From Candidatus Daviesbacteria bacterium (GTDB taxonomy: Bacteria; Patescibacteriota; Microgenomatia; Daviesbacterales; UBA10151): a stretch of DNA of 64,000 nucleotides. Where the stretch lies: the NCBI GenBank assembly GCA_016187035.1, contig JACPKL010000010.1, forward strand, positions 94,616-158,615, given 5' to 3'. A program made the position numbers and the translations under genes. Below, piece by piece: positions 5,997-54,733 of this stretch. Under the pieces are notes generated by a model. The model did not search any database. It was not told the origin of the DNA and saw nothing but the letters and a program-made list of their open reading frames with translations. The first letter of the stretch is position 1; each line of letters starts with the position of its first letter.

Positions 5997-7022
5997 TTAT
6001 CCTGTCAAGTAGTCTCCTAAATTATCTGAATTAATCTTAAACGGCCCACTTTGTCCTTCTACCATTTTTCTTGCAACCTTTCGGCAAATTGTTTGCAGTG
6101 TTCTTGCTAAAGATCTTATACCAGCGTCAAAACCTAAAGGACGAATAATCTGTGGCCAAATAGAATCATCAATCTGTAAAATATTATTATCTATTCCTGC
6201 TTCTTCTAATGCTTTTGGCAAAAGATAGTTTTTACCTATTATTTGCTTTTCTTCATCAGTAAAGCTGGGCATTTGAATTGGTTCTATCCTATCTAAAACT
6301 GCTGTTGCTATATTTGATGTATTATTGGCTGTAGCTATAAAAAGAACTTGTGATAAATCATAAGGAAAATCCAAATAATGATCTACAAAAGCTTGGTTTT
6401 GGCTGGGGTCCAAAAGCTCTACTAAAATCCCCATAATATCAACTCTATGCTCTTGAGCTACTCTATCTATTTCGTCAAGTAAAATAACCGGGTTTGAAAC
6501 TTTGGCTAGTCTAACAGCTTTGATAATTTGACCTGGTTCTGCTTCAGCTCTCTGGCGTGATTGGCCACGAAGCAAATTCGGATCACCCAAACCTCCAAAC
6601 GGAATCCTGACAATCGGCCTGCCTAGACTTTCTGCTATTGAATAAGCAAGAGAAGTTTTACCTGTTCCTACCAAACCAATAAAAGCTAAAATTGGGGCAT
6701 GTCCTTCGACTCGCTGACGCTGCGGATTTCTTCTGTTTAAAATCATGACTGCTAGGTATTCTAAAATCCTATCCTTTACCACTTGTAGGCCATAATGATT
6801 TTTATCCAGGATTTGTTTTGTGCGGTTAATGTCTAATATATCAGTAGAATTTTTATTAAAAGGCAGGGAAATTACAAAATTAATATAAGCTACTAAACTT
6901 GATAGTTCATGTATCCCAGAAAATTTCAAAGCAGTTAAGAGTTTCTCTGATACCTCAGGAGGTAAATTAGCTTGGGTAATTTTTATTTTTAGTTCTTCAA
7001 GACTTAATCGGGCAGAATCCAT
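5997..7022 (-). CDS. Lon-family AAA+ ATPase module only (no LON N-domain, no S16 protease domain)
   Basis: Aligns to E. coli Lon about residues 270-600: HYGLxxVKDRILEYLAV, Walker A GLVGTGKTSLA, LLDEIDR and a C-terminal AGIRSLxRxLxxICRK sensor region. The flanks are RNase J and a 125-bp intergenic region. Confidence 0.75.
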   Translation of the reverse strand: MDSARLSLEELKIKITQANLPPEVSEKLLTALKFSGIHELSSLVAYINFVISLPFNKNSTDILDINRTKQILDKNHYGLQVVKDRILEYLAVMILNRRNPQRQRVEGHAPILAFIGLVGTGKTSLAYSIAESLGRPIVRIPFGGLGDPNLLRGQSRQRAEAEPGQIIKAVRLAKVSNPVILLDEIDRVAQEHRVDIMGILVELLDPSQNQAFVDHYLDFPYDLSQVLFIATANNTSNIATAVLDRIEPIQMPSFTDEEKQIIGKNYLLPKALEEAGIDNNILQIDDSIWPQIIRPLGFDAGIRSLARTLQTICRKVARKMVEGQSGPFKINSDNLGDYLTG

Positions 7023-7147
7023 GCTTCATATTTTACCTCAAATGTTATTCCTATGAAAGTCCTTCGATCCCGAGGTCCTCAGGACCGAGGGGCAGTAATC
7101 CATAAAATAATATTGTCATTCTGATTTGCATCACCTTAAGTATACTA

Positions 7148-8436: not shown

Positions 8437-9114
8437 ATGATTCAAAAAGGTTTTGCACCGATAGCTATACTACTTGTTTTAAGTTTAATAATTACTGGTA
8501 TAGTTTTGATCAGCAAAGGTAAAACTTCAAACGAGCAAATAAGTGATATTAAGCAAGAAAACATCTCAAGCACTGTTATCCCAACACTTACTCCAACAAA
8601 CCCATCTATCCAACCCTCTTTTAAACCTCAACCTACACAGAAACCAAGTCCAACTTTTCTTTACACTCCTGCTCCAACCCCTGCTCAAACTCCTATACCT
8701 ACACCCAAACAACCAATGTTGACAACTAAAGTTTATCTTGGCAGGTCACATAGCAATATACCTGAAAGTGCTTCAGGAAATGGGGAAATTAAATTAATGA
8801 GCCTTGATCCTTATATGTCAGAAGGCGCAAAGATTGCTTCTTTACAATATGATTTTAACTTAAGAGGATTGGAAGCAGAAAGAAAATATTCAATATCCAT
8901 CTGTACTATTCAAGAAGGGGGAGATTGTGTTGGGCTTGCTACTACTAAAACTGACAAATCAGGTAATGCAAGTTATAGTGGCAACTCAGGTATAACTATC
9001 ACCAAAGACAGACCTTTTAAGGCAATTAAGGTGACTCATCATAATGGAGGATTTTGTAGTAATTCTGGATCACCCTGCCTAAGAGGAGAACTTTCTTTAG
9101 AGGTTAATTTTTAA
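8437..9114 (+). CDS. secreted/membrane-anchored protein with a Pro/Thr-rich linker, hypothetical
   Basis: N-terminal MIQKGFAPIAILLVLSLIITGIV anchor followed by a P/T/Q-rich linker. Confidence 0.5.
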   Translation: MIQKGFAPIAILLVLSLIITGIVLISKGKTSNEQISDIKQENISSTVIPTLTPTNPSIQPSFKPQPTQKPSPTFLYTPAPTPAQTPIPTPKQPMLTTKVYLGRSHSNIPESASGNGEIKLMSLDPYMSEGAKIASLQYDFNLRGLEAERKYSISICTIQEGGDCVGLATTKTDKSGNASYSGNSGITITKDRPFKAIKVTHHNGGFCSNSGSPCLRGELSLEVNF

Positions 9115-9128
9115 ATAAGAAAAGGGTA

Positions 9129-11507
9129 TTAACGGTCAAATCCGCCTCTACCACCGCGACCTCCGCGGTCTCTTCCGCCTCTACCAAATCCACCAGTTCT
9201 GCCTCTCCCTCCAAACCTATCCTGGGTTCTATCAAAGGACCCGCCACTTCTACCGCCTCCACTGCCAAAGCTTGGACGATTACCAAATCCTCCACTTCTG
9301 GGTCTACCCGCTTCGCCAAAGCGAGGCGAATCGCCAAAAGAGGAACGAGATCTAAAACCTCCGCCTTCTCTCGGTCTAAAATTTCCACCACCAGTAGGCC
9401 TCCCCTCGGTCTCTGGTTTAATATTTGCCCCAAAAAGCATTGATAAACCAATCTTTCCGTCAGGAGAAACATCAGTTACCCTAACCTTTACCTCTTGACC
9501 TTCTAAGACTACATCTTCTGGTCTGTTAACATGTCCAGGTGCCATTTGGGAAATATGCACCAACCCATCTTTGCCAGGAGCAATTTCTACAAACGCCCCA
9601 AACGGAGCAAGTCGCACGACCCTACCACTCAACTCATCTCCTACATTAAAGCTTTTAAACATACCATGAATAGAAGCAATTGCTGCATCAACTCCTTCGG
9701 GATTGACGCCTGAGATCATCACTGTCCCATCATCCTCGATATCAATTTGAGCGCCTGTTTTAGAAATAATTGAGTTAATAGTTTTTCCACCTGTGCCGAT
9801 TAAAAGCCCTATCTCTTCTGGTTTGATATGCAAAATTTCAACTCTTGGGGCATGAGGAGATAAAGGCCCTGCACTAGGAATAACTTTATCCATTTGTTCT
9901 AAAAGTTGTATCCTGGCTTTGCCACCCATATTAAGGGCTTGCTCAATTATGTCAAAGGTTAAACCTTCCAGCTTAGTATCCATCTGAATGGCAGTAATTC
10001 CATTTTTAGTACCTGCTATTTTAAAATCCATCTCTCCGTAAAAGTCTTCCACTGCCCTCATATCTGTTACTACCTGAGTTTTTTTCTCATCGGAAAACAG
10101 CCCCAATGCAATTCCAGCAACAGGCTCTATCAGAGGTACACCAGCATTCAGTAAAGCTAAAGTGGTTCCACAAACTGCAGCCATAGAAGTTGAGGCATTG
10201 GCTGCTAATACTTCAGATACTACTCTGATTGCGTATGGGAATTGATCTTCTTTTGGAACAACTGCTATGATGGCTTTTTCAGCCAAAGCACCATGACCAA
10301 TATCACGTCTGTTAGGAGCAGCCAGTCTTTTAACCTCACCTACAGAAAATGGATTAATACTCATATTATAATGGTGCATAAACCTTTTTTGTCTTTCCCC
10401 TTCCATCCCATCCAAAGTTTGCTTCAAAGAAGGAGCCCCCAGTGTTACAACAGATAAAACTTGAGTGTCTCCTCTTTGGAAAAGTGCGCTGCCATGAGTT
10501 CTTGGCAAAATTCCAACTTCTATCTGAATTGGCCTAATCTCATCCATAACTCTCCCATCTACTCTTTTACCTTTTTCCAAAACCTCTTTCTGTAAAATTT
10601 CTTTGGCAACTTTGTCAAAAATGCCTGATATAACTTGTTCTGTTAAAGCTTCTGCGTATTGGGTAGCAAGCTCTTTTTTAATCAAATCACCAGTTGCCTC
10701 ATGCCAAGGGTGCTCATTATCAAACAAAGCCTTTTCGATTCGTTCTTTGGTAATTTTAGATACTTCTTTAAGTAACGCCTCTTCAATTTCCTCCTCTAGA
10801 TGGGAGTAGGTCTGTTTCGTTTTACCAGCAACTTTCCCAAATTCTTCAATCAAAGAAATAATTGGTTGGGCTTGTGCATAAGCTTCTTTAATCCCTGCAA
10901 AAACTAACTCGTCTTTAACCTGATTAGCCCCTGTTTCTATCATGACAACTTTGTCTTTGGTAGAAGCTACTAAAAGATCCATATTAAGATGTTCTATCTC
11001 ATTAATAGTGGGATTGACTACTAAACTGCCTTCTCTTTCACCGATTCTTACTCCAGCAATTGGGCCTTTCCAAGGAATAGAAGAGATAGATAAAGCAGCT
11101 GATGCACCGATTAAACCAACAATATCAGGATCGTTTGCCTGATCTACAGATAATACAGTCAAAATTACTTGCACCTCATGCATTTTAAAATCTTTAGGAA
11201 AAAGCGGGCGGATGGAACGATCCACTAATCTGCCTGTTAAAACAGCTTCATCAGTGGGTCTAGTCTCTCTTTTGATAAATTTTGAGGAAGAAATTCTACC
11301 TCCAGCATAATGTTTTTCTACATACTCAACTGAGAGAGGAAAATAACCAATATCTTCTTTTAAAGGTTGTGTGGCAACTGTTGCTAAAATTACAGTTTCA
11401 CCCCAAGACACTAAAACAGAAGCATCTGCTTGCAGAGCTAACTTGCCTGTTTCTAATTTCAACTTACGACCATTAAGATCGATTTCTTTTACTATAACTT
11501 TGTTCAT
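9129..11507 (-). CDS. pnp: polyribonucleotide nucleotidyltransferase (PNPase) with a C-terminal Arg/Gly-rich (RGG) tail
   Basis: Two RNase PH domains, KH and S1 domains, then an RGG/FGG tail of about 95 aa encoded by GC-rich DNA at 9129-9420. Confidence 0.95.
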   Translation of the reverse strand: MNKVIVKEIDLNGRKLKLETGKLALQADASVLVSWGETVILATVATQPLKEDIGYFPLSVEYVEKHYAGGRISSSKFIKRETRPTDEAVLTGRLVDRSIRPLFPKDFKMHEVQVILTVLSVDQANDPDIVGLIGASAALSISSIPWKGPIAGVRIGEREGSLVVNPTINEIEHLNMDLLVASTKDKVVMIETGANQVKDELVFAGIKEAYAQAQPIISLIEEFGKVAGKTKQTYSHLEEEIEEALLKEVSKITKERIEKALFDNEHPWHEATGDLIKKELATQYAEALTEQVISGIFDKVAKEILQKEVLEKGKRVDGRVMDEIRPIQIEVGILPRTHGSALFQRGDTQVLSVVTLGAPSLKQTLDGMEGERQKRFMHHYNMSINPFSVGEVKRLAAPNRRDIGHGALAEKAIIAVVPKEDQFPYAIRVVSEVLAANASTSMAAVCGTTLALLNAGVPLIEPVAGIALGLFSDEKKTQVVTDMRAVEDFYGEMDFKIAGTKNGITAIQMDTKLEGLTFDIIEQALNMGGKARIQLLEQMDKVIPSAGPLSPHAPRVEILHIKPEEIGLLIGTGGKTINSIISKTGAQIDIEDDGTVMISGVNPEGVDAAIASIHGMFKSFNVGDELSGRVVRLAPFGAFVEIAPGKDGLVHISQMAPGHVNRPEDVVLEGQEVKVRVTDVSPDGKIGLSMLFGANIKPETEGRPTGGGNFRPREGGGFRSRSSFGDSPRFGEAGRPRSGGFGNRPSFGSGGGRSGGSFDRTQDRFGGRGRTGGFGRGGRDRGGRGGRGGFDR

Positions 11508-12975: not shown

Positions 12976-13260
12976 ATGAATAATACAGTTTTACAAATCC
13001 CTGTTGATAAAAATGTGAGAAATCAGGCTGCTTCTAAAGCAGAAAAAATGGGCTTTTCCTCTTTACAGGAAGTAGTCAGGTTATTTCTTAATAAAATAGC
13101 ATCAGGAAAAATTGATGTGACTTTTGAACCAACAGTCAAATTATCCACTAAAGCTACTAAAAAGTATAACAAAATCATAGATGAGATAGAATCTGGCAAA
13201 GCTCAAACAAAATCATTTACAGATGTTAAAAACTTAATGAAGTATTTAAATGAAGGTTAA
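12976..13260 (+). CDS. RelB/DinJ-family antitoxin
   Basis: VDKNVRNQAASKAEKMGFSSLQEVVRLFLNKIA resembles the DinJ N-terminus. It overlaps the downstream toxin gene by 11 bp. Confidence 0.7.
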   Translation: MNNTVLQIPVDKNVRNQAASKAEKMGFSSLQEVVRLFLNKIASGKIDVTFEPTVKLSTKATKKYNKIIDEIESGKAQTKSFTDVKNLMKYLNEG

Positions 13261-13516
13261 CCTGTATCATGGTTTTGTAAAAGCTTACAAAAAAAGGATT
13301 GCTCCAAACATCAAACTTGTCTCAAAAACAGAGGAAAGAATTTCTCTTTTTAAATCTAATCCTAAAAATCCTCTTTTAAAAGATCATGGATTAACTGGAG
13401 CTAAAAAGAATCTTCGAGTATTTTCCATTACAGGAGATATCAGAATAGTTTATCTTCCTGTTTCTGAGGAAGAAGTTACTTTTATTAATATTGGATCACA
13501 TAATCAAGTTTATTAA
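13250..13516 (+). CDS. RelE/ParE-superfamily toxin (YafQ/RelE-like)
   Basis: C-terminal KDHGLTGAKKNLRVFSITGDIRIVY...IGSHNQVY is the RelE/YafQ signature (L.G....R..........Y...H...Y). Confidence 0.75.
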   Translation: MKVNLYHGFVKAYKKRIAPNIKLVSKTEERISLFKSNPKNPLLKDHGLTGAKKNLRVFSITGDIRIVYLPVSEEEVTFINIGSHNQVY

Positions 13517-28674: not shown

Positions 28675-28745
28675 CTTTTACTTATCAGGATATTAGTCCT
28701 CAAATTATTAGACCAATCATTCCACCTGAAATATGTGTACCAATT

Positions 28746-28797
28746 TACTGTACGATCGTACAGTAAAATGGTATGGACATACATATATACGATCGTA
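28746..28797. repeat. two TACGATCGTA-core palindromes (tactgtacgatcgtacagta; catacatatatacgatcgtatcaatgtatg)
   Basis: Perfect 20-bp palindrome at 28746-28765 and a second copy at 28788-28797 inside a larger inverted repeat. Confidence 0.6.
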
Positions 28798-28835
28798 TCA
28801 ATGTATGGGATAGATTTCTGTGTTATGATTAATTT

Positions 28836-32754: not shown

Positions 32755-32825
32755 CTACTTAGATCTAAATAATTAATTCCATACATTGATACGATCGTTT
32801 AAATGTATGTCAACTATTTAAAATT

Positions 32826-43822: not shown

Positions 43823-43859
43823 TATGCAAGTAGGTATTACTCATGGAAGAAACATTACT

Positions 43860-44120
43860 ATGAGAGAATTGGAAACCACCCTGACGCAGAAGGGTCAAGT
43901 GACAATCCCCGTGGAGATCCGTTCCCGCCTGGGCCTGAAACCGAAAGATAAGGTGCGGTTTGAAGTGGAGGGGGATGAAGTCAAGATCAAGCCCGCGCCC
44001 TCGCGCATTGCCCGCCACTTTGGGGCGGTGGCTGTATCTGGAAAGTCGCTGGATTGGCGAGTCGAGCGGAAGGCGTTTGAGGAAGGCGTGGCCGAGGAGG
44101 TAGTGGCCGAGGATCGGTGA
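43860..44120 (+). CDS. vapB: AbrB/MazE (SpoVT-AbrB) family antitoxin VapB
   Basis: TLTQKGQVTIPVEIRSRLGLKPKDKVRFEVEGDEVKIKP swapped-hairpin motif in GC-rich DNA. Overlaps vapC by 4 bp. Confidence 0.75.
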   Translation: MRELETTLTQKGQVTIPVEIRSRLGLKPKDKVRFEVEGDEVKIKPAPSRIARHFGAVAVSGKSLDWRVERKAFEEGVAEEVVAEDR

Positions 44121-44542
44121 TGTCTATGCCACGCTTCCTGGACACCAATATCCTGCTGCGCTACTTCACAGGCAGTGGTAGCGAGAAGGCCCTGGCAGCC
44201 AAAGTACTGCTTGAGCGCATAGAACAGAGCGAGGAGAAGGTAGTCATCTCCGTACTGGTGGTGTTTGAGACAATTTTCACCCTACAGCGCACCTACAAGG
44301 TGCCCAAGGTCAAGATCCGCGAGATGGTCGGCGATGTGATCGCCCTGCGCGGTGTCCAACTCACGGGCAAACGGCTATGCTTGCAAGCCTTGGATCTCTA
44401 TGTGGGAAAAAACATCTCCTTCGCCGACGCCTACAACGTCATCTACATGCAGTCGCAGCAGTTCTCGGAGATCTACAGCTGGGATACCGACTTTGACAGG
44501 ATCGAGGGCATTACTCGCATTGAGCCAGCCCAGGATATGTAA
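44117..44542 (+). CDS. vapC: PIN-domain toxin VapC
   Basis: FLDTNILLRYF N-terminal PIN motif and conserved acidic residues, in GC-rich DNA. Confidence 0.8.
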   Translation: MMSMPRFLDTNILLRYFTGSGSEKALAAKVLLERIEQSEEKVVISVLVVFETIFTLQRTYKVPKVKIREMVGDVIALRGVQLTGKRLCLQALDLYVGKNISFADAYNVIYMQSQQFSEIYSWDTDFDRIEGITRIEPAQDM

Positions 44543-44647: not shown

Positions 44648-46651
44648 ATGCCCACTTCGCAAAAGCTCAGTGTAAACTTTCTTGATGACTTAAATTCCAT
44701 TCAACAAAAAGCGGTTAAAACAACTGAGGGACCGGTATTAATTTTGGCCGGGGCTGGCTCCGGCAAAACCAGGGTGTTAACTTACCGCGTAGCTTATTTG
44801 ATTGCTGAGAAAAAGATTCCTCCTGAAAATATCCTTTGCCTGACCTTCACAAATAAAGCTGCTGGAGAAATGATGGATCGTATTTTAAAACTTTTGGACC
44901 ACCAGCTACCAGCTACTAACTACCAACTACCTATTATGGGCACTTTTCATTCTTTTTGTGCCAAAATCCTAAGACGTGATGGCAAAGCCTTAGGATTGCC
45001 TCCTGGCTTTACCGTATATGATGAATCCGATGCATTAGATGCTATAAAAGAAGCTATGGGTAATTTGAATATTCCGACCCAAAAAACTTCTCCTTTTTCA
45101 GTAAGACACACTATTTCTTCAGCTAAAAATGAATTAATTTCTGCACTTGAATACCCACAATATGCCAGAGGGTATTTCCAGGAAACTGTAGCTAAAATTT
45201 ATTTAGAATATCAGAAGATTTTAGAGAAAAATAAAGCCCTGGATTTTGATGACCTGCTGCTGACAACTATTAAGCTGTTTCAAACAGAACCAGCTATATT
45301 GACCCGCTATCAAATTCAATTCCGTTATATCTTAATAGATGAATACCAGGATACCAACCCTGCTCAATATCTGATTTCAAAATATTTAGCAAACAGGCAT
45401 AAAAATATTTGTGTAGTCGGGGATGCTTCACAATCTGTGTATTCTTTCAGAGGAGCAGATTTCAGAAACATTGTTAATTTTCAAAAAGACTACCCAAACG
45501 CTAAAGTTTTTAACCTGGAGCAAAATTACCGCTCTACCCAAAATATCCTGGATGCAGCCCATGCTGTAATTTCTAAAAATAAATTACATCCTATTTTGAA
45601 ACTTTGGACAAATAAAAATGGGGGAGAAAAAATTGAAATAGTGGAGGTAAGAAATGAAATTGAGGAAGCTCTATTTATCTTGTCCACCATAGATCACCTC
45701 CGAGGTGTAAGCGCATTTTTTCACCTCGGAGGTGTAGCCGTGCTTTATAGAACTAATGCCCAATCCCGTGCTTTAGAAGAACAATTTTTAAAATCTGGTA
45801 TCCCTTATAAATTAGTTGGTGGAGTAAGCTTTTACGAGAGAAGAGAGATTAAAGATATTTTATCCTACCTTAGGTTACTGCAAAATCCTAAGGACTCTGT
45901 ATCTTTAAAAAGAGCAGAAAAAATTGGCAAAGGAAGACTGGGAAAAGTTTTAGGATTCTCAGCGTCATTGCGGGGAATCGGACCGAGCGAAGCCAAGTCA
46001 GACTTGGTTTCGCCAAGTCTGACTTGGCGAAGCGAGGGAGATCGCTTGCAAAATGCGAAGCATTTTGACAAGGGCTCGAGTGAAACGAGCGGCCCTTCAG
46101 GCCTCGGAATGACCACAATCGAGCTATTAGATCAACTTCTAGCAAAAACAGGCTATTTGGCTTATTTGGATGATGGAACAGATGAAGGAGGGGGCAGGGT
46201 GGAAAATGTTAAAGAACTTAGGTCGGTAGCAGAAGAGTTTCCTAGTTTAGTCCAATTTTTAGAGAACGTGGCTTTGGTGGAAAATGGTTTTCTGCCTTCT
46301 TCTGAAAAAAATATTCAGCAAGACGTAGTAACTTTAATGACCCTGCATTCTGCTAAAGGCTTGGAGTTTCCGACAGTTTTTATGGTAGGAATGGAGGAAG
46401 GACTATTCCCCCATTCACGCTCTATGCTAAATCCTCAGGAACTTGAAGAGGAAAGAAGGCTTTGTTATGTGGGCATCACCAGGGCAAAAGAAAAATTATA
46501 TTTAACTTACAGCAGGCAAAGATTATATTTTGGCACCAGATCTAATAATTTAGTTTCCCGCTTTTTATCTGATATTCCCCAAGACTTAATTTCCTCTAAC
46601 ACAAACTTCAAAAACCAAGATCAAGATAATGAAGATTGGTTAAACACATGA
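44648..46651 (+). CDS. uvrD: ATP-dependent DNA helicase UvrD/PcrA, carrying an in-frame palindromic insert
   Basis: AGAGSGKTRVLT Walker A and UvrD motifs throughout. Insert at about 45965-46113. Confidence 0.9.
   Translation: MPTSQKLSVNFLDDLNSIQQKAVKTTEGPVLILAGAGSGKTRVLTYRVAYLIAEKKIPPENILCLTFTNKAAGEMMDRILKLLDHQLPATNYQLPIMGTFHSFCAKILRRDGKALGLPPGFTVYDESDALDAIKEAMGNLNIPTQKTSPFSVRHTISSAKNELISALEYPQYARGYFQETVAKIYLEYQKILEKNKALDFDDLLLTTIKLFQTEPAILTRYQIQFRYILIDEYQDTNPAQYLISKYLANRHKNICVVGDASQSVYSFRGADFRNIVNFQKDYPNAKVFNLEQNYRSTQNILDAAHAVISKNKLHPILKLWTNKNGGEKIEIVEVRNEIEEALFILSTIDHLRGVSAFFHLGGVAVLYRTNAQSRALEEQFLKSGIPYKLVGGVSFYERREIKDILSYLRLLQNPKDSVSLKRAEKIGKGRLGKVLGFSASLRGIGPSEAKSDLVSPSLTWRSEGDRLQNAKHFDKGSSETSGPSGLGMTTIELLDQLLAKTGYLAYLDDGTDEGGGRVENVKELRSVAEEFPSLVQFLENVALVENGFLPSSEKNIQQDVVTLMTLHSAKGLEFPTVFMVGMEEGLFPHSRSMLNPQELEEERRLCYVGITRAKEKLYLTYSRQRLYFGTRSNNLVSRFLSDIPQDLISSNTNFKNQDQDNEDWLNT
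45965..46113 (+). repeat. GC-rich palindromic element (GTCATTGCGGGG...CCTCGGAATGAC termini) inserted in-frame in uvrD
   Basis: Imperfect 12-bp terminal inverted repeats, internal palindromes ccaagtcagacttgg x2, and GC far above the local value. The ORF stays open across it. Confidence 0.65.
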
Positions 46652-47346
46652 TAGAACGTTACTTAGGAATTTTACTAATTATTTTATTGACAGTTCTTGC
46701 AAAAAATTTCTGGCAGCCTTCTGCTGTTTTAGGACAATCTACCTCCTTACCTGCTCAAACCCTGCCTGTTAACCAACCAATTACTACTGAGTCTAGTTTT
46801 ACTGAAAAACTCGAGGAAGAAACCCAAAATTTACCTAAAAAAACAATTTTTGAAGATGATCCTGACATGGAAGCCGGTGAAGAAAAAGTATTGGAGGAAG
46901 GTGAAGATGGACAAAGAGTGACAGTATTTAAAATTACATACTCAAATGATGGAGAAGAATACCAAAGAGATGTTGTTTCAACTACAAACACCCAGCCTAA
47001 AAATAAAAAGGTATTAAGAGGAACTAAAATTGTCTGGAAAACTCTTAATATCCCTGAGGGAGAGATTAAATATTGGAAGAAAATGAGAGTGTATGCTACC
47101 CATTACGATTGGCGTTGCCCAGGATGTAATGAATGGACAGCCATAGGAATGAGAGCAGGTAAGGGGGTAGTTGCAGTTGACCCAAAAGTGATCCCTTTAA
47201 GAAGTAAGGTTTATATTCCAGGATACGGGATTGCCATAGCAGGTGATACTGGCGGAGCTATCAAAGACAACAAAATTGACTTAGGTTTTGATGATGCAAA
47301 AACTGCCGGCTGGAAGGCGCACTTTATTGATATTTACCTGCTGTAA
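46636..47346 (+). CDS. G5 + 3D domain protein (YabE/YuiC-like cell-wall binding or lytic protein)
   Basis: G5-like region followed by a C-terminal 3D domain (AVDPKVIPLRSKVYIPGYGIAIAGDTGGAIK). Confidence 0.7.
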   Translation: MVKHMIERYLGILLIILLTVLAKNFWQPSAVLGQSTSLPAQTLPVNQPITTESSFTEKLEEETQNLPKKTIFEDDPDMEAGEEKVLEEGEDGQRVTVFKITYSNDGEEYQRDVVSTTNTQPKNKKVLRGTKIVWKTLNIPEGEIKYWKKMRVYATHYDWRCPGCNEWTAIGMRAGKGVVAVDPKVIPLRSKVYIPGYGIAIAGDTGGAIKDNKIDLGFDDAKTAGWKAHFIDIYLL

Positions 47347-47382
47347 TTGCGCCTGGAAGCACTGAGTTTACCGAAGTGCTGG

Positions 47383-47406
47383 TCAGCCAGATTTGTGGAT
47401 ATATAT
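47383..47406. repeat. 24-bp direct repeat, copy A (tcagccagatttgtggatatatat)
   Basis: Identical to 48332-48355. Confidence 0.9.
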
Positions 47407-47410
47407 CTTA

Positions 47411-47854
47411 TTAATTAATTTTTATACATTTTCCAAAGCAATCATGGCAACCTGGCTTGATATCGCATCTATACCCATCTAAGCACTTTAATCCTACAAA
47501 ACCACCGCATTTGATATTTTCACAACTATCTACCTTCTTCCAACCTTCTGGCACATCACACGGAGTACCAAATTCTTTACACTCGCCTGTCTTGGGATTT
47601 TTAGCAGGGGTAATAACTTGAGCACAAATTTGATCTACAGAAGAAGGACTTGGAATTGGTGTAGGTTTGATATTCACATCCAAAAATTTTTGCCCTAAGG
47701 AAAACCCAAGCGGTTGAGTAAAAAACCATCCACCTGGACAATCCACAGTAAGGGTGAAACATGGTTTCCGGGGAATATAATAGGGCAAAGGTAAAACCAA
47801 AATTCCAATAACAATTAAAAAAATAATTCTAAGTGGCGTGATCCATTTTCGCAT
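47411..47854 (-). CDS. small secreted cysteine-rich protein
   Basis: N-terminal signal/TM segment and 12 Cys in the C-terminal 70 aa. Confidence 0.45.
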   Translation of the reverse strand: MRKWITPLRIIFLIVIGILVLPLPYYIPRKPCFTLTVDCPGGWFFTQPLGFSLGQKFLDVNIKPTPIPSPSSVDQICAQVITPAKNPKTGECKEFGTPCDVPEGWKKVDSCENIKCGGFVGLKCLDGYRCDIKPGCHDCFGKCIKIN

Positions 47855-47890
47855 AGGTTAAGTTTAACATAGAGATGGTATAATTATTCA

Positions 47891-48106
47891 ATGAGACGAA
47901 TTCATTCTGTTACCTGGAAAGAAGATAAGTGGTATGTGGCTAAAGCTCTTGAGTTAGAGATAGCTAGCCAGGGAAAAACCCAGAAAGAAGCTCTTGATAA
48001 TTTAAAAGAAGCATTAGAATTATATTTTGAAGATCAATCTAAAGTAGAACTATCACCTGTTAGTAAACCTAAACTTCAAGATTTATCCATCCAGGTTAAT
48101 GCCTAA
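47891..48106 (+). CDS. hicB: HicB-family antitoxin
   Basis: WKEDKWYVAKALELEIASQGKTQKEALDNLKEALELYFED, HicB/UPF0150. Confidence 0.75.
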   Translation: MRRIHSVTWKEDKWYVAKALELEIASQGKTQKEALDNLKEALELYFEDQSKVELSPVSKPKLQDLSIQVNA

Positions 48107-48323
48107 ACTATATTCTGCCAGAGTCATCATTCATGCTTTACAAAGAGCAAATTTTGAGGTTATTAGTCAGAAAGGCAGTCATATTAAACTGCATAAAAAA
48201 GAGGGAGAAAAATCTTCTACAGTGATCGTTCCTAATCACAAAGAAATAGCCATCGGGACTTTTAACAGTATCTTAAAACAAGCAGGAATAACACGAAAAG
48301 TGCTTGAAGAATTTATTAGATGA
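48099..48323 (+). CDS. hicA: HicA-family mRNA interferase toxin
   Basis: VIIHALQRANFEVISQKGSHIKL...ILKQAGI, YcfA/HicA fold. Overlaps hicB by 8 bp. Confidence 0.75.
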   Translation: MPKLYSARVIIHALQRANFEVISQKGSHIKLHKKEGEKSSTVIVPNHKEIAIGTFNSILKQAGITRKVLEEFIR

Positions 48324-48331
48324 TGAACTGA

Positions 48332-48355
48332 TCAGCCAGATTTGTGGATATATAT
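48332..48355. repeat. 24-bp direct repeat, copy B
   Basis: Identical to 47383-47406. Confidence 0.9.
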
Positions 48356-48358
48356 TTA

Positions 48359-48781
48359 TTATAATCTCTCTAAATATTTTAAAATTTCAGCCCCAAATTG
48401 ACGGAGATCTTTTAAGTCCTCTTTATAATCTTTAAAAAGAAGATGGAAGTCGAAATCATTATAGCCGTGTACAACTCTATTTCTAAAATCTGCTGCCTGA
48501 CCCATTTCAAAAGCTAGCTCTTTTGATATAATTCCTTTTTCTCCTAAAAAGCTAAAGGCATCTTTTGCTGTCTCTTTTTCAGATACATTAAGCCCGGCAA
48601 TAGTATGGGCTGCAATATCAATGCAAGTTTCAACTCCCTGCTGCAAACGGAAAACCACCAAATCATGAATATCAGGGTTTTCCACAAAAGTTTCTTCACT
48701 AAAATCCATGTTCTCAATTTTTTGGGTTTGTTCGTTCAGAAAATCCAGTTTTTTGGCAATTAAAGATTTATTAACCGGCAT
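48359..48781 (-). CDS. hepT: HepT-like (DUF86) toxin
   Basis: FRNRVVHGY (Rx4HxY) motif near the C-terminus. Confidence 0.75.
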   Translation of the reverse strand: MPVNKSLIAKKLDFLNEQTQKIENMDFSEETFVENPDIHDLVVFRLQQGVETCIDIAAHTIAGLNVSEKETAKDAFSFLGEKGIISKELAFEMGQAADFRNRVVHGYNDFDFHLLFKDYKEDLKDLRQFGAEILKYLERL

Positions 48782-49178
48782 AAGCGAATTTATCTTTCAA
48801 ATAAGAATAGTATATTTTTCTAATGTGAGCGCTATCGTAATAATTCCTAGCAGCGAATACTTCAAAATAAACCTTAGCCTGTTCTGATTTCTGATAAATA
48901 CATTTTCCGGTACTTATAACTTGAAACAAAAATATTGGGGAAGATCTTTTATCAACTACAGACAAATCCAAATCCTTAGGAAAACTAATATGGGAAATTA
49001 GATTATAAACATCCTTATGGTCTAGTCTGGATACATCATCTATCACCACAGCTAAATCAAAATCGCTCTCCTTTTTTACTCTACCACTAACTGCCGAACC
49101 TAAAACATAGGCCAGTTTTATTTTCGGCTCCTTGGATAAAGCTGTGTTAATTTGCTTAGTCAAATTATTATCTATCAT
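48771..49178 (-). CDS. mnt: MNT-type minimal nucleotidyltransferase antitoxin
   Basis: GSAVSGRVKKESDFDLAV (GSx9-13DxD) motif. Overlaps hepT by 11 bp. Confidence 0.75.
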   Translation of the reverse strand: MIDNNLTKQINTALSKEPKIKLAYVLGSAVSGRVKKESDFDLAVVIDDVSRLDHKDVYNLISHISFPKDLDLSVVDKRSSPIFLFQVISTGKCIYQKSEQAKVYFEVFAARNYYDSAHIRKIYYSYLKDKFAYAG

Positions 49179-49188
49179 TAGATGAGTA

Positions 49189-49878
49189 TTATAGCATCTC
49201 TGAGAATTTAAAACTTTCTAAAATTTTATCTCCGCTTTCGTCTATTATTCTAAATAAATACATCTTGCCATTATTTGATATATAAAGATATTTAGGGGTA
49301 TTTGGCTGATAAGTAACAATTTTATATTTGGCAATCTTCCCGCTTATTGTTGCCTCTTTATCCAAAGCTACATGTCCCTTTGATTCAAAGTCAAATACTC
49401 CCCAAAGAAAAGGGTAATACCAATATTTATCAAACCAACTTTCTACGGTTAAACCATTTGGGTTGTCAAATACCCAGACAGAAATAGGGCTTTTATCAAA
49501 GTTTTGGTCTTTTTCTAAAACTACTACAGCTCCTAATAATTTCCCTGGCTCATACCCCACATATCCTTTAAAATTCTTTCTAAAATCCCCATTACCTCTT
49601 TTGTTATATTCTTCTTCAGAATCTTCTTTTACAGTTAAATCCTCATTAGGATAAGTTAACTGAAAACCCAGTTGCTTATTCTGATACGTTTGCTCTTTAT
49701 TTTTTTCGACAGATTTTAAGCTTAAGACGTTTTTTTGTATTGGTAAGATAGTCTTTTTTATATCTGGCTGATTTATATTTTTTGGCTGTTTATTTCGTAA
49801 TATCCAATACACTCCACCACTGGCCAATATCGTTAATACTACAGAAATCATTAAAAGCTGGGCAAAACCTTTTTGCAT
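49189..49878 (-). CDS. membrane-anchored hypothetical protein (MQKGFAQLLMISVV anchor)
   Basis: N-terminal anchor with the recurrent MQKGFA motif. Confidence 0.45.
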   Translation of the reverse strand: MQKGFAQLLMISVVLTILASGGVYWILRNKQPKNINQPDIKKTILPIQKNVLSLKSVEKNKEQTYQNKQLGFQLTYPNEDLTVKEDSEEEYNKRGNGDFRKNFKGYVGYEPGKLLGAVVVLEKDQNFDKSPISVWVFDNPNGLTVESWFDKYWYYPFLWGVFDFESKGHVALDKEATISGKIAKYKIVTYQPNTPKYLYISNNGKMYLFRIIDESGDKILESFKFSEML

Positions 49879-50622: not shown

Positions 50623-51705
50623 ATGGATTTAAGGCCAATAGCTGACAAACAAAAATCTCAATACAACAAATTAGTTACTCATGTTATCCAGTCATGGGAG
50701 TGGGGAGAATTTAGAAAATCATTAGGGTTACCGGTTTTAAGATATGGGCTTTTTGAAGCTAACCAACTTACTGCAGCTTTTCAACTGACTTTGCACAAAA
50801 TACCTTTTACTAACAAATATGCCGGCTATTTACCAAAAGGCCCTGCTTCTGATTCGCAACTAGCTGAGGCTTTGGAAAAGATTGGCAGAAAACATAATTG
50901 CGCTTTTATCAAGCTGGAACCTAATATCCCCGTCATTGCGAGCGAAGCGAAGCAATCTTCTACCTTAACTAATAAGATTGCCACAGTACGTTCAGTTGAC
51001 ATGAACGTACCTCGTAATGACAAATTAGTAGATAAAAGTTTTATTCCTTCTCCAAAACCATTATTTACTAAATATAATTTTGTTTTGGATCTAACACAAT
51101 CAGAAGAGCAAATTTTAAAAAACATGCATTCAAAAACCAGATACAATATTAAACTAGCTCAAAAACATGAAGTAAAAGTTGAAGAAAAAACTGATGATGA
51201 AGCTTTTAAGATTTATTTAAAATTATATTTTGAAACAACTAAAAGGCAAGGTTACCATGGACATAATGAGTATTATCACCAAAAGGTTTGGGAAACTTTA
51301 AAAAAAACAGGAATGGCCAGATTACTGATTGCCTCATACAAAAACGAGCCTTTAACTGCCTGGATGCTTTTGAATTTCAAAGACACCCTTTATTACCCTT
51401 ATGGCGGATCTAACAAAAACCATCCGGAAGTAATGGCCAGTAACTTGATAGCCTGGGAAGCTATAACTTTAGGTAAAAAGCTGAAGCTTAAAAAGTTTGA
51501 TATGTGGGGAGCTTTGGGACCTGATGCTAATTCCAAAGATCCCTGGTATGGATTTCATAGATTTAAAGCTGGTTTCGGAGGAAAACTCATAGAATATATC
51601 GGCACTTATGATTTAGTCTTTGACTGGCCACTTTACTGGATGTTTACTTTAATAGATAAATTAACACCACTAAAAGTCTTTCTGTTAAAATTACTTGGAA
51701 AATAG
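50623..51705 (+). CDS. FemAB-family peptidoglycan interpeptide-bridge peptidyltransferase, carrying an in-frame palindromic insert
   Basis: FemAB/MurM-like N-terminus (HVIQSWEWGEF) and a GNAT-like C-terminal half. Insert at 50932-51021. Confidence 0.7.
   Translation: MDLRPIADKQKSQYNKLVTHVIQSWEWGEFRKSLGLPVLRYGLFEANQLTAAFQLTLHKIPFTNKYAGYLPKGPASDSQLAEALEKIGRKHNCAFIKLEPNIPVIASEAKQSSTLTNKIATVRSVDMNVPRNDKLVDKSFIPSPKPLFTKYNFVLDLTQSEEQILKNMHSKTRYNIKLAQKHEVKVEEKTDDEAFKIYLKLYFETTKRQGYHGHNEYYHQKVWETLKKTGMARLLIASYKNEPLTAWMLLNFKDTLYYPYGGSNKNHPEVMASNLIAWEAITLGKKLKLKKFDMWGALGPDANSKDPWYGFHRFKAGFGGKLIEYIGTYDLVFDWPLYWMFTLIDKLTPLKVFLLKLLGK
50932..51021 (+). repeat. 90-bp GC-rich palindromic element with perfect 11-bp terminal inverted repeats GTCATTGCGAG / CTCGTAATGAC, in-frame in the FemAB-like CDS
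   Basis: Shares its ends, core (gcgaagcaatcttc...aataagattgccac) and translation frame with the sbcD copy. Confidence 0.7.
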
Positions 51706-51777: not shown

Positions 51778-52284
51778 ATGGACACTACACTAATCATCTC
51801 CGGAGGTATTTTGATAGGCTGCATTATATCCCTATCCTGGTTTGCTGGCTCTGATGCACCCTTTGTACCCACCAAAATGGATCATATCAGAAAAATCCTC
51901 AAGCTTGCCGGAGTTAAAAAAGGAAAAAGATTTTATGAGCTAGGATCTGGTGATGGCAGGGTTGTCCTTGCTGCTGCCAAACTGGGTGCTTATGCCGTTG
52001 GCATAGAACAATCCTGGATTAGGATTTTATATTCCAAACAATTAGCTTTACACCTTCCAGGTATCAACGTAAAGTTCTATCATGGAAATTTATTTTCCAA
52101 ATCCTATAAAGATGCTGATATTATTTATATTTACCTGCTTCATAAAGGTGTTAAGAAACTGGAGGAAAAGCTTAAAAAGGAATTAAAAAAAGGTGCTATA
52201 GTAATTACCCAAACTTATCATTTCCCAAACTGGAGACCATTTAAAAAAGAGGGGGATTTTTGGTTGTACAAACAAACATTTTAG
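51778..52284 (+). CDS. small class I methyltransferase-like protein
   Basis: YELGSGDGRVVLAAAKLGAYAVGIE Rossmann motif I. Confidence 0.5.
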   Translation: MDTTLIISGGILIGCIISLSWFAGSDAPFVPTKMDHIRKILKLAGVKKGKRFYELGSGDGRVVLAAAKLGAYAVGIEQSWIRILYSKQLALHLPGINVKFYHGNLFSKSYKDADIIYIYLLHKGVKKLEEKLKKELKKGAIVITQTYHFPNWRPFKKEGDFWLYKQTF

Positions 52285-53468
52285 TGTACGATCGTACAAG
52301 CAATTGGTACGGCTTTTGTAATCTGCTCAAGTCTCTCGTTTCTAATTGTATACAAATCCTCTATTCTGACCCCACCAAACATAGGAATATAAATCCCAGG
52401 CTCTATGGAAAAAACCATTCCTGTCTTTAAAACTTCCTTGCTTTTGGGTGAAAGGGAAGGATGTTCATGAACTTCAAGTCCTATCCCATGACCTAAGGAG
52501 TGAGGTAAATTCGGATAACCCTTAGACTTAATATAATCCCTGGCTACTTTGTCTACATCTGCTGACTGCACTTGCTTAGTAGAATTAATATAGTCTACTG
52601 CTTTCTTTTGTGCTTCTAAAGCTACCTCGTACATTTCCTGTTGTTTCCTGATAGGTTTTCCAAAAAATACAGTCCTGGTCATATCAGAACAATAATTTTC
52701 CCATTTTACTCCGAAATCGAGAAGGACGATTAGTCCTTCTCGTCCTGAGCGAGACTTCGACGGTGAGCTCAGTCGAACCGCGGAGCGAGTCGCACGTTCG
52801 ACAAGCTCAGTGCGACCCTGAGCGACAGTCGAATGGGTCGAAAGACCCAAAACAGTTTGTCCAGTTTGATGATGCGGTATAGCAGAATTTTTACCAAAAG
52901 CAACTATAGCTGGAAAAGAAAACTCTCCTCCTTGCCCTTTAATAAAATCCTCCAATTTATTAGCAATTTCTTTTTCAGTTACACCTATTTTAATCTGTTT
53001 TAAAATATACTCAAAAGCCAAATCCCCTATCTTACAAGCCTTTTTTATTTTCTTTATTTCATCAGGAGTTTTTATGCTCCTATTTAATTTAAAATGTTTT
53101 GTGGTTTTAAAATGCTTTTTTACTAATTTTGCCTCTAGTACAGTTAAATTATCCTCCTCTATTCCTAAAATTTTAATTTGATTTTTTAGCTTTTTAAACA
53201 ACTGTTCCGTTGGTGTTTGATGACTTCTTTCAAAAAGTTCAAAATGTGGCACTTGTTTTTTTATGGCATGGGTATATCTGCCATCAGTAATAATATATTG
53301 AAGATTATTTCCTATTATTAAGTAGGCTTCTCTTTCTTCCTTTGAAAAATTAGCATAACCTGTCAGATAAGTAATATTAGAAACAGAGGAAATAAAAACT
53401 GCATCTAATTTTCTTTCTTTAAGATTTTCCCTGATATTTTTTAATCTGGTTACAAACATGCCCCACAT
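52281..53468 (-). CDS. pepP: Xaa-Pro aminopeptidase (M24B), carrying a GC-rich in-frame insert
   Basis: Creatinase-like N-domain with M24 metal ligands (HGIGLEVHE) at the C-terminus. GC-rich insert at about 52745-52855. Confidence 0.8.
   Translation of the reverse strand: MWGMFVTRLKNIRENLKERKLDAVFISSVSNITYLTGYANFSKEEREAYLIIGNNLQYIITDGRYTHAIKKQVPHFELFERSHQTPTEQLFKKLKNQIKILGIEEDNLTVLEAKLVKKHFKTTKHFKLNRSIKTPDEIKKIKKACKIGDLAFEYILKQIKIGVTEKEIANKLEDFIKGQGGEFSFPAIVAFGKNSAIPHHQTGQTVLGLSTHSTVAQGRTELVERATRSAVRLSSPSKSRSGREGLIVLLDFGVKWENYCSDMTRTVFFGKPIRKQQEMYEVALEAQKKAVDYINSTKQVQSADVDKVARDYIKSKGYPNLPHSLGHGIGLEVHEHPSLSPKSKEVLKTGMVFSIEPGIYIPMFGGVRIEDLYTIRNERLEQITKAVPIACTIVH
52285..52298. repeat. TGTACGATCGTACA palindrome at a convergent gene junction
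   Basis: Perfect 14-bp palindrome between the 51778..52284 (+) and pepP (-) stops. Confidence 0.6.
52745..52855 (-). repeat. GC-rich palindromic in-frame insert within pepP, related to the grpE patch by the shared 11-mer gcgagacttcg
   Basis: Multiple internal inverted repeats (gctcagg/cctgagc, gggtctttcgaccc). Encodes HSTVAQGRTELVERATRSAVRLSSPSKSRSGREG. Confidence 0.55.
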
Positions 53469-53488: not shown

Positions 53489-54733
53489 TTGATGAAACTT
53501 CTTCATTTTTCTGATCTTCATATTGGGATGGAAAATTATGCTAAATTGGATCCTGAAACAGGATTATCCTCAAGACTTTTGGACTTTTTTAAAACTTTTG
53601 ATTTTATTGTTGAAACTGCTTTTACAGAAGATGTTGATGCTGTTATTTTTGCTGGAGATGCTTATAAAACCCGTGACCCAAACCCTACCCAGCAAAGAGG
53701 TTTTGGTGAAAGAATTAAAAAACTAGCCAAAAAAATCCCGGTAATATTGGTCGTGGGAAACCACGATACTCCTAATGCTGACGGCAAAGCTAATACTTTG
53801 GATATATATTCTGCTTTGGAAATAGAAAATGTTTTGGTATCAAGAAAACCTGAGTACTTAGAAATCTCCACTAAATCAGGCTCCTTACAAATTATCACTC
53901 TTCCCTGGCTGCATAAAAATGACTACAAAACAATCGGGGATAAACTGCAACTGCAGTATGACAAAATCAAACCTTCCTCTCCTGCTATACTTTTATCACA
54001 TGCTGAAGTAGAAGGAGCAACATATGGGTCTGAAAAAGGCCTGGCAATTGCAAATGATGTGACTATTCCCCTGCCTCTTTTACAGGATAAAAGAATATCT
54101 TATGCGGCTTTAGGCCATATCCACAAACATCAAGTTTTATCAAAAAACCCTTTGGTTGTTTACTGCGGCTCTCCCCAAAGGATTGATTTCGGAGAAGAAA
54201 AGGAAGAAAAAGGCATATGCCTTGTGGAAATAAGTCCCTCTTTGTCATTGCGAGCGACAGCGAAGCAATCTTCCACCTCCAATAATAAGATTGCCACGTC
54301 CTCGTCTACGGCGACTCCTCGCAATGACGGTTTTACCGCCTCTTTTCAATTTATCCCTACCAATGCCAGAAAATTTTTAACCATTATCGTTAATTTAAAA
54401 AACGGACAAGAAAACCCTACTCAAACCATTCTGGAAGAAATTCAAAATTATGATATTAAAGACAAGATAGTCAGGCTGATTATAAACATCCCTGCTGATT
54501 GTAATAAAGAAATCCATATGGACAAAATTAAAAAAGCTTTATCCGCCTCTCACCTGATTGCCGGTATTTCCAGAAATGTGGAAAGAGTAGAAAGGGTGAA
54601 GTTTGATGGAGGGAAAGAAGTGGAAACTTTAACACCAGTTATGGCTTTAAGAAAATATTTTGAGTTTAAAAAATACCCTCTTCAAAAACAAAAAGAGTTG
54701 GAAAAATACGCTGCCCAGCTGTTAGATAGTTAA
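53489..54733 (+). CDS. sbcD: exonuclease SbcD (Mre11-like), carrying an in-frame palindromic insert
   Basis: LLHFSDLHIG phosphoesterase motif I. Insert at 54244-54328. Confidence 0.85.
   Translation: MMKLLHFSDLHIGMENYAKLDPETGLSSRLLDFFKTFDFIVETAFTEDVDAVIFAGDAYKTRDPNPTQQRGFGERIKKLAKKIPVILVVGNHDTPNADGKANTLDIYSALEIENVLVSRKPEYLEISTKSGSLQIITLPWLHKNDYKTIGDKLQLQYDKIKPSSPAILLSHAEVEGATYGSEKGLAIANDVTIPLPLLQDKRISYAALGHIHKHQVLSKNPLVVYCGSPQRIDFGEEKEEKGICLVEISPSLSLRATAKQSSTSNNKIATSSSTATPRNDGFTASFQFIPTNARKFLTIIVNLKNGQENPTQTILEEIQNYDIKDKIVRLIINIPADCNKEIHMDKIKKALSASHLIAGISRNVERVERVKFDGGKEVETLTPVMALRKYFEFKKYPLQKQKELEKYAAQLLDS
54244..54328 (+). repeat. 85-bp GC-rich palindromic element with 11-bp TIRs GTCATTGCGAG / CTCGCAATGAC, within sbcD
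   Basis: Encodes ...RATAKQSSTSNNKIATSSSTATPRND..., paralleling the FemAB copy (...SEAKQSSTLTNKIAT...PRND...). Confidence 0.7.

Follow-up and report, generated by a model that had tools for sequence, protein, structure and literature searches.

Prophage e14 and phage 21 insert in the 3' end of the Escherichia coli icd gene and bring a replacement end with them. Integron cassettes and CALIN arrays are built from units of about 0.5-1 kb that often carry toxin-antitoxin (TA) pairs or small secreted proteins, have a structured site each and a fixed platform, and lack a recombinase of their own. SGI1-type islands integrate at the 3' end of trmE (PMC8409611), and in the tycheposon islands of Prochlorococcus each new integration displaces earlier elements outward, so that partial tRNAs stay behind, scattered through the island (10.1101/2020.12.28.424599). 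Here we describe a locus in a 64,000-nt stretch of DNA (the window; contig JACPKL010000010.1 of assembly GCA_016187035.1, positions 94,616 to 158,615 of the forward strand) from a Candidatus Daviesbacteria bacterium of the Candidate Phyla Radiation (CPR), in which two copies of a 24-bp direct repeat bracket a gene for a cysteine-rich protein and a hicBA TA pair. Our analysis leaves us nearly certain that these repeats are relics of the 3' end of the adjacent G5-3D gene, lying at the cassette joints of a hot spot that extends across the lineage. The 3' end of this conserved core gene is both the target and the source of the repeats.

As the first-pass annotation of this DNA had it, the 24-mer TCAGCCAGATTTGTGGATATATAT is found at 47383-47406 and 48332-48355, both on the plus strand. 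These are the only two exact copies in the window; no further copy appeared there even with three mismatches allowed, and none arose in 100 shuffles (chance expectation 0). A 20-mer scan of 185,579 GTDB species genomes, a set of representatives that does not include the source genome, returned a single match, in one unrelated Bacteroidales, so that the caveat attached to that annotation, a common terminator motif, no longer stands. Similarity between the copies extends to CTG[G/A]TCAGCCAGATTTGTGGATATATAT[C/T]TTATTA (33/35 identical) and takes in the stop codon of a minus-strand gene at each copy, and the unit delimited by the two repeats measures 949 bp. Both copies lie between convergent gene ends as reported, copy 1 between G5-3D and the Cys-rich gene and copy 2 between HicA and HepT, and open reading frames (ORFs) and Pfam matches agree with the content given for the intervening segment, a minus-strand gene for a 147-aa protein with 12 cysteines and a hicB-hicA pair. 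What had been overlooked was a diverged third copy at the working end of G5-3D, a second inserted module encoding HepT/MNT, and the coding origin of the repeat. The idea of a duplicated terminator site does not hold, as no terminator-like site is called at either copy and the sequence is that of G5-3D codons.

The G5-3D gene has more than 2,500 homologues; its orthologues in Daviesbacteria are 70-86% identical and always follow UvrD. In the window its working end reads GATGATGC...GGCTGG AAG GCG CAC TTT ATT GAT ATT TAC CTG CTG TAA and encodes DDAKTAGWKAHFIDIYLL before the stop, giving a C-terminus of AGWKAHFIDIYLL (G-W-K-A-H-F-I-D-I-Y-L-L-stop). Orthologous C-termini elsewhere in Daviesbacteria end in AGWSARFVDIYLL (alignment A1) or in GWSARFVDIYLL (e.g., P0055). 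Copy 1 lies within relic 1, TGG TCA GCC AGA TTT GTG GAT ATA TAT CTT ATT AAT TAA, which translates as WSARFVDIYLIN (W-S-A-R-F-V-D-I-Y-L-I-N-stop) and which runs 8 nt into the 3' end of the Cys-rich gene. Copy 2 lies within relic 2, GATGATG-AA-CTGA TCA GCC AGA TTT GTG GAT ATA TAT TTA TTA TAA, or stop-SARFVDIYLL-stop; it shares its 5' edge GATGATG with the hicA stop codon and its final 6 nt with the stop region of HepT. This overlap of 6-8 nt on a minus-strand stop is the geometry of the real G5-3D/PsbP-like gene pair at sites without an insert.

A simple profile of the last 12 G5-3D residues was scanned over about 875 kb of related loci, referred to below by numbers with the prefix L. The window holds three gene-end copies, the working one and two relics, and extra copies were also found in L008 (2), L021, L026, L028, L033 (2-3), L039, L043, L044 (3), L053, L062, and L129. 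All occur on the strand of the gene and downstream of G5-3D, apart from one spurious match on the opposite strand. When relics are compared with their best-matching working ends, 54 of 84 differences fall at codon position 3, the same proportion as between working ends; the relics must thus have been coding sequence until a short time ago. In the window relics, the 27-nt core matches the working ends of other lineages at 26/27 (L031) or 25/27 positions (L039, L045, and L067), versus only 16/27 for the resident working end. Among all relics, 15 of 16 are nearer to the working end of another lineage than to that of their own gene, indicating that many derive from an allele other than the one in use. 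The coordinates of the features are collected in Table 1.

Table 1. Features of the G5-3D locus, with window coordinates, strand and supporting evidence
Feature	Position	Strand	Evidence
G5-3D gene (G5 + 3D domains, cell-wall related)	46636..47346	+	Pfam G5 2e-16, 3D 7e-14
Working 3' end of G5-3D, diverged third repeat copy	47290..47346 (repeat-like part 47308-47346)	+	Peptide-profile score 10/10
Stem A	47315..47354	+	Alignment of nine doublets (A2); also in minimum free energy fold
Hairpin B, AGCACT GAGTTTACCGA AGTGCT	47358..47380	+	Kept in nine doublets; helix 2 93.7% paired
Relic 1 of G5-3D end, holds copy 1	47380..47418	+	Peptide-profile score 9/10
Cys-rich 147-aa protein gene, membrane-anchored or secreted	47411..47854	-	ORF; N-terminal hydrophobic helix, 12 Cys
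hicB (DUF7387, 71 aa); hicA (74 aa)	47891-48106; 48099-48323	+	Pfam DUF7387 1e-9, HicA_toxin 1e-17
Relic 2 of G5-3D end, holds copy 2	48319..48364	+	Peptide-profile score 8/10
HepT (140 aa); MNT (135 aa)	48359-48781; 48771-49178	-	Pfam HepT-like 3.5e-24, Polbeta/NTP_transf_2 3e-17
PsbP-like membrane-anchored protein gene (hyp229), ancestral convergent neighbor of G5-3D, right hot-spot border	49189..49878	-	Paralogues match Pfam PsbP_2 4e-8

Orthologues of G5-3D were gathered by protein search with contig look-ups and by a metagenome scan, yielding about 45 loci whose gene order was mapped by tblastn. This order is conserved: UvrD and G5-3D on one strand, the PsbP-like gene convergent with them, then a SurA-like gene and FemAB in the direction of UvrD. 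In at least ten lineages (L011, L012, L016, L017, L019, L022, L029, L040, L041, and L056) the PsbP-like gene meets the G5-3D stop directly at its 3' end, either adjoining or overlapping it, with an overlap of about 9 nt in L011 and L012; these are the empty sites that comparison with sister genomes, as suggested in the first-pass annotation, was meant to reveal. In about 20 other lineages 0.4-4 kb separate the two genes, some of the shorter gaps being C-terminal extensions of the PsbP-like gene and not inserts. We clustered 87 ORFs from the inserts of about 45 loci and ran representatives against Pfam, finding secreted paralogues of the PsbP-like protein that in many cases include Cys-rich modules, HicAB pairs of two kinds, a DUF2283-type pair, HepT/MNT, and a 2OG oxygenase. 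The sole transposase-like gene in any insert is of the IS1595 type (zinc ribbon plus DDE_Tnp_IS1595), at 8775-9590 (minus strand) in L053 and 6603-7052 (minus strand) in L024. This one site is an insertion hot spot common to many Daviesbacteria, and it holds several stacked modules.

Relics lie at cassette joints in at least 11 lineages, and in three genomes a near-identical pair surrounds intact cargo: besides the window, L008 has a pair of about 30/31 identity flanking a PsbP-like paralogue and a second HicAB, and in L039 the working end and a relic, about 90% identical over 57 nt, flank a paralogue and a DUF2283 pair. In L044, a decayed hicBA lies between relics that have diverged to 22/33. 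The order in L129/L130 is G5-3D end, hicBA, and then a 57-nt relic whose 5' 23 nt (ATGATGCCAAAACAGCCGGCTGG) are identical to the gene at 23/23 positions, the identical core being ATGATGCC..GGCTGG, while the remaining 33 nt are decayed (18/33). This is the arrangement that results when an element supplies a replacement gene end. At its 5' edge, GATGATGCC, the L129/L130 relic overlaps the hicA stop; the junction has a near-equivalent in L044 and is also found in the window (AGA TGA TGA ACTGA TCAGCC, 48319-48331); relic 2 of the window is consistent with a former 57-nt relic that has suffered an internal deletion of about 11 nt. Long relics start on the left at points that differ by about 10 nt at most (-57 to -66).

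The gene order of the window recurs in a relative, L124, where HicB is 89% identical and the order is G5-3D, small minus-strand gene, hicBA, short relic, HepT-MNT, and PsbP-like gene, with a shortened relic TATCTATTTACTCTAA at the position of relic 2. The two loci are collinear at 76-78% nucleotide identity, the same as for G5-3D itself, except at 47319-47840 of the window, where L124 encodes a different, 116-aa Cys-rich protein and the hairpin doublet described below is absent. Collinearity at the divergence of core genes indicates that the joint of hicBA, relic and HepT-MNT predates the split of the two lineages, so that a single recent cassette is too simple an account of the 925-bp segment. 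By this alignment, the variable slot is the small secreted-protein gene together with the doublet.

The hicB and hicA genes overlap by 8 nt, the NCBI name of the former is HicB family antitoxin, and the pair has the sequence features of a predicted HicAB type II TA system. Orthologous HicBA pairs occur at the hot spot in L008, L032, L068, L044, L124, and L129. A DUF7387-HicA pair of 83% identity is also present, without relics, at two unrelated sites, beside an AlaRS gene (L125 5001-5430) and between uvrA and uvrB (L127 5001-5433), showing that the pair does move. The adjacent and overlapping HepT and MNT genes encode the motifs expected of such a pair, RNRVVHGY (Rx4HxY) in HepT and GSAVSGRVKKESDFD (GSx10DxD) in MNT; orthologues stand beside G5-3D in L074, L076, L053, and L124, and we assign HepT/MNT as a predicted second TA module inserted at the hot spot.

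The Cys-rich protein is composed of a transmembrane helix, a CxxxxxxCPGGW stretch, a four-Cys module (QVITPAKNPKTGECKEFxTPCDVPEGW), and a CGGxxGxxC module. Its homologues share mainly the four-Cys module, C[IA]QVITPAKNPKTGECKEFPTPCDVPEGWxKVxSC, and relatives of its parts are encoded at the same hot spot in L038, L035, L047, and L030. At 47540-47631, where this module is encoded, the DNA matches the 3' part of the L124 PsbP-like gene (2064-2155) with 88% identity, in surroundings of 70-78%, as if the module had been transferred from one hot-spot gene to another. The protein has no Pfam match; its AlphaFold model, a structure prediction that the first-pass annotation had suggested, has a mean predicted local distance difference test (pLDDT) score of 66 and is confident only for the four-Cys module, at residues 77-111 or so (about 93-95), and comparison with PDB folds gave no match with an E value below 0.9. 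The protein is thus a mosaic, membrane-anchored or secreted member of the variable family of the hot spot; these results speak neither for nor against the effector or bacteriocin-like role suggested in the first-pass annotation.

Copy 1 is preceded by two hairpins. In stem A, the 5' arm AGGCGCA (47315-47321, in the codons K-A-H) pairs with TGCGCCT (47348-47354, just past the stop), the loop being the last seven codons and stop of G5-3D. The hairpin AGCACT...AGTGCT that had been reported beside copy 1 is indeed present (arms 47358-47363 and 47375-47380); this hairpin B has a CTGAG...CGAAG design with possible tandem G.A pairs. Gene end, 3' arm, hairpin, and a relic starting from TGG together form a doublet that recurs in nine places (the window, L008, L026, L028, L033, L043, L044 twice, and L062) with a start-to-start spacing of 69-73 nt. 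In an alignment of the nine (A2), the arm just past the stop pairs with codons x-A-x-F of the working end; 6 of 11 pairs in stem A are changed on both sides, 88.8% of cells are paired versus 27-50% with the partner slid, and the observed covariation score was reached in none of 500 shuffles. A third, shorter copy from GTAGAT is found in L008, L033, and L062, preceded by an arm that covaries with the previous copy (GTGGACA/TGTCCAC, GTTGACA/TGTCAAC, and GTAGATA/TATCTAC). The doublet is present without any cargo in L026, L028, and L043, which indicates a maintained structure and not just debris, and it may act as a terminator or stabilizer for the convergent genes or as a folded recombination site. 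Fold z-scores of the doublet are modest (-0.6 and -2.1). Read-through extension of G5-3D was also considered: the window doublet is in frame, but spacings of 71-73 nt at other loci make its translation unlikely.

The CTGAG..CGAAG design of hairpin B is also that of a dispersed hairpin family in Daviesbacteria loci, with the consensus (T)GTCAT[C/T]CTGAG-N4-9-CGAAG[G/A]AT and a covarying stem (ATCCT/AGGAT or ATTCT/AGAAT). Copies are found in the window at 23904 (+), 27422 (-), and 52782 (-), and elsewhere at L008 8842, L011 14869, L012 2422/2508, L048 (seven copies), L053 7115, and L073 1885/1938, often in inverted pairs and often directly past stop codons, including that of G5-3D. The family has no Rfam match, and a literature search with the hairpin sequence found nothing. 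Palindromes of the form GTCATYCTGAG...CGAAGRAT...ATGAC also occur in-frame at two other positions of uvrD and inside a FemAB-like gene in other lineages (L012 2422-2508, L018 5133, L048 8869 and 9196, L046 9396, and L051 9353), recalling Rickettsia palindromic elements. The uvrD gene of the window (44648-46651) itself has, at approximately 45960-46110, a GC-rich insertion that keeps the frame, adds about 40 aa and is made up of near-perfect hairpins (231 nt fold at -88 kcal/mol); L011 and L012 lack it there.

As to how the repeats arose, we see a little better than an even chance that cassette DNA with its own copy of the gene end recombined in the Campbell manner to produce them. The incoming DNA would consist of a copy of the G5-3D 3' end plus cargo, namely a TA pair and usually a small secreted-protein gene overlapping that copy at its 3' end, and would recombine either with the end of the resident gene or with a relic already in place. 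Campbell-type insertion would leave one gene-end copy on each side of the cargo and G5-3D intact, and repeated events would shift older copies away from the gene. Since the cassettes carry no recombinase, the reaction must rely either on a recombinase whose gene lies elsewhere or on host homologous recombination, for which 23-57 bp of identity would be available. Recombination between the near-identical copies could likewise delete or circularize the 949-bp unit of Cys-rich gene and hicBA; that the intermediate is circular, in which order the events took place and what kind of enzyme acted are points that we infer. The structure of the relics argues for a crossover inside the 24-mer. Relic 1 is chimeric, with a canonical left part (hairpin, then TGG) and a module-specific right part (YLIN-stop), and relic 2 is chimeric in reverse, with a module-specific left part (the hicA stop, and TGA for TGG) and a canonical right part (YLL-stop). 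Joining the left of relic 1 to the right of relic 2 across the 24-mer rebuilds CWSARFVDIYLL followed by a stop, the form found in the doublets of other lineages, and this supports an attachment-site (attL/attR)-like pattern. The junctions are exact enough that excision could be tested by looking for the circle ...ATTAGATGATGAACTGA-TCAGCCAGATTTGTGGATATATAT-CTTATTAATTAATTTT... and the empty site ...CCGAAGTGCTGG-TCAGCCAGATTTGTGGATATATAT-TTATTATAATCTCTC....

Several observations weigh against this scheme. Relic 2 is old, and for it to match relic 1 at 33/35 positions something must have happened later, either cassette replacement or homogenization between the relics; the relics differ from the resident working end, which requires extra steps or foreign donors; and HepT-MNT lacks a relic on its right side. 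No integrase, resolvase, or recombinase is encoded in the roughly 45 hot-spot inserts as judged by ORF clustering and Pfam, and a crude regular-expression search found no tyrosine-recombinase motif among the ORFs of the window. Assembled same-strain contigs from about eight sequencing runs are all identically arranged, with neither presence/absence polymorphism nor a circular junction among them, and two degenerate scans of IMG/VR with the gene-end pattern returned nothing or one unrelated phage family, hence no viral contig with a G5-3D end. Site-specific insertion or a duplicated attachment site, as first proposed for these repeats, therefore survives in part: the repeats behave like duplicated attachment sites around a TA-bearing segment and relatives have an empty site, but the inserts encode no recombinase and L124 argues against a single recent cassette of 925 bp.

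An unlikely but substantial alternative is that the gene-end copies were made in place, by unequal crossing-over or slippage at the hairpin-rich 3' region of G5-3D, with paralogues and TA modules later expanded or swapped between copies, so that the repeats would be scaffolding and not scars. The fixed geometry (69-73 nt) of doublets and triplets in the cargo-less L026, L028, and L043 would fit such an origin, as would the many cargo genes paralogous to the flanking PsbP-like gene (cluster C0), the three paralogues with repeated internal segments in L008, and the evidence from L124 that relic 2 predates the present left-hand content. Copies made in place should not, however, be nearer to the working ends of other lineages, as 15 of 16 are, and old ones should be decayed, whereas the differences are of the codon-position-3 type; the occurrence of HicBA at unrelated loci and the replacement gene end in L129 also speak against duplication in place. 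Resemblance to foreign working alleles is what would be expected if each module had been imported by transformation as a linear fragment of the locus of another Daviesbacterium, anchored by homology on the right and joined illegitimately on the left, with the donor G5-3D tail as a passenger. The variable left edges of long relics and their overlap with the stop of the neighboring gene, as at the real locus, agree with this too. We nevertheless regard such an import as rather improbable, because it leaves unexplained the near-identity of two relics per genome (the window, L008, and L039), the hicA-stop/GATGATGCC junction conserved in three lineages, and the attL/attR-like chimeric pattern.

It is very improbable that the 24-mer is instead a functional repeated signal, be it a bidirectional terminator, a 3' untranslated element of two minus-strand genes, or a protein-binding site. 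Both copies do lie directly 3' of minus-strand stops (TAATAA plus shared sequence), GATATATATC within them is a 10-nt palindrome, and the hairpins of the neighboring doublet covary. Against these points, the 64 kb contain only two copies, sequence around copy 2 folds no better than shuffles (z = +0.74), and no intrinsic terminator is called at 47347-47420 or 48324-48360. Rfam 15 gave no match at the gathering threshold in the window, a search of the region yielding chance-level hits only (E > 1; 12-20 bits versus gathering thresholds of 38-60), and the sequence is wholly explained as G5-3D codons. A diversity-generating retroelement was rejected as well, because mismatches between working end and relic are not adenine-specific (4-5 of 14) and the neighborhood has no reverse transcriptase-like ORF; nor, by inspection only, does the site show the boxes expected of an integron attC or Xer/dif-like site.

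Going beyond Campbell-type recombination as such, Daviesbacteria might keep a structured landing pad past G5-3D, a decoy copy of the gene end in the covarying hairpin doublet that captures and releases circular cassettes of about 0.5-1 kb, bearing TA pairs and variable surface proteins, without a cassette-borne recombinase. We offer this as a doubtful proposal; if true, CPR bacteria would possess a platform for gene capture resembling that of integrons, in which a host enzyme recognizes the sequence or fold of the gene end.

Other repeats and TA-like genes were seen in the window. Just upstream of uvrD, an island of 55-58% G+C at 43824-44542, in a genome of about 35% G+C, encodes by inspection an AbrB/SpoVT-like antitoxin (98 aa) and a PIN-like toxin (141 aa); relatives have nothing or a methyltransferase at this place, so that the island is probably a recent foreign TA insertion. 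Two small adjoining ORFs at 12976-13516 (94 and 88 aa) resemble, by inspection only, an antitoxin with a RelE-ParE-type toxin. A second dispersed motif, the palindrome GTACGATCGTAC / TACGATCGTA with 34-41 nt of similar flanks, occurs in both orientations at 28737-28816, 32771-32811, and 52277-52312, and at about 11190 in L044. Finally, a 39-nt repeat (90% identical) with an inner inverted repeat GCAATCTT...AAGATTGC lies at 50946-50984 and 54259-54297, inside two coding genes, one FemAB-like and one metallophosphatase-like.

In CPR bacteria, genomes are tiny, recognizable mobile elements are few and gene exchange is poorly understood, and this locus shows one concrete route. A single 3'-end site repeatedly receives very small modules, TA pairs and variable Cys-rich or PsbP-like surface proteins, and the joints can be read as gene-end relics. 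Searching for extra in-strand copies of the last codons of a gene could reveal such hot spots elsewhere.

Compared with integrative elements at gene 3' ends, the Daviesbacteria hot spot has an intact target gene, a duplicated end as direct repeat on the far side of the insert and an empty site in relatives, and L129 has the 23-nt identical core followed by a diverged old end. Unlike those elements, its inserts carry no integrase or excisionase, its units measure only 0.5-2 kb, what they carry is a TA pair together with one small secreted protein, and a decoy relic can serve as the site instead of the gene. With tycheposon islands it shares repeated integration at one site, partial target copies as remnants, and a streamlined host genome with few classical mobile elements; the target, however, is a protein-gene end where tycheposons use a tRNA, elements with a recombinase or replication module are not seen at the hot spot, and everything is on a tenfold smaller scale. 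Lacking a recombinase of its own, the hot spot does not belong to either family as defined. Like integron and CALIN arrays, it has small recombinase-less cassettes, a structured site and an adjoining fixed platform. It differs in that no intI was found, UvrD, G5-3D, PsbP-like, SurA-like, and FemAB genes flanking the array in all loci, and in that inspection shows no RYYYAAC/GTTRRRY boxes, the arms of stem A vary without an AAC/GTT core, gene orientation is mixed, and the repeat derives from the coding end of a neighboring gene. Rickettsia palindromic elements and repetitive extragenic palindromic (REP) or miniature inverted-repeat (MITE)-like repeats are comparable insofar as hairpin B belongs to a dispersed covarying family with related palindromes in-frame inside uvrD and other genes, and such elements account for the hairpin by copy 1 but not for the 24-mer. 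Set beside these systems, the hot spot of this CPR lineage is a miniature, recombinase-less cassette site at the 3' end of a protein-coding gene, where a decoy of that end is conserved in structured form.

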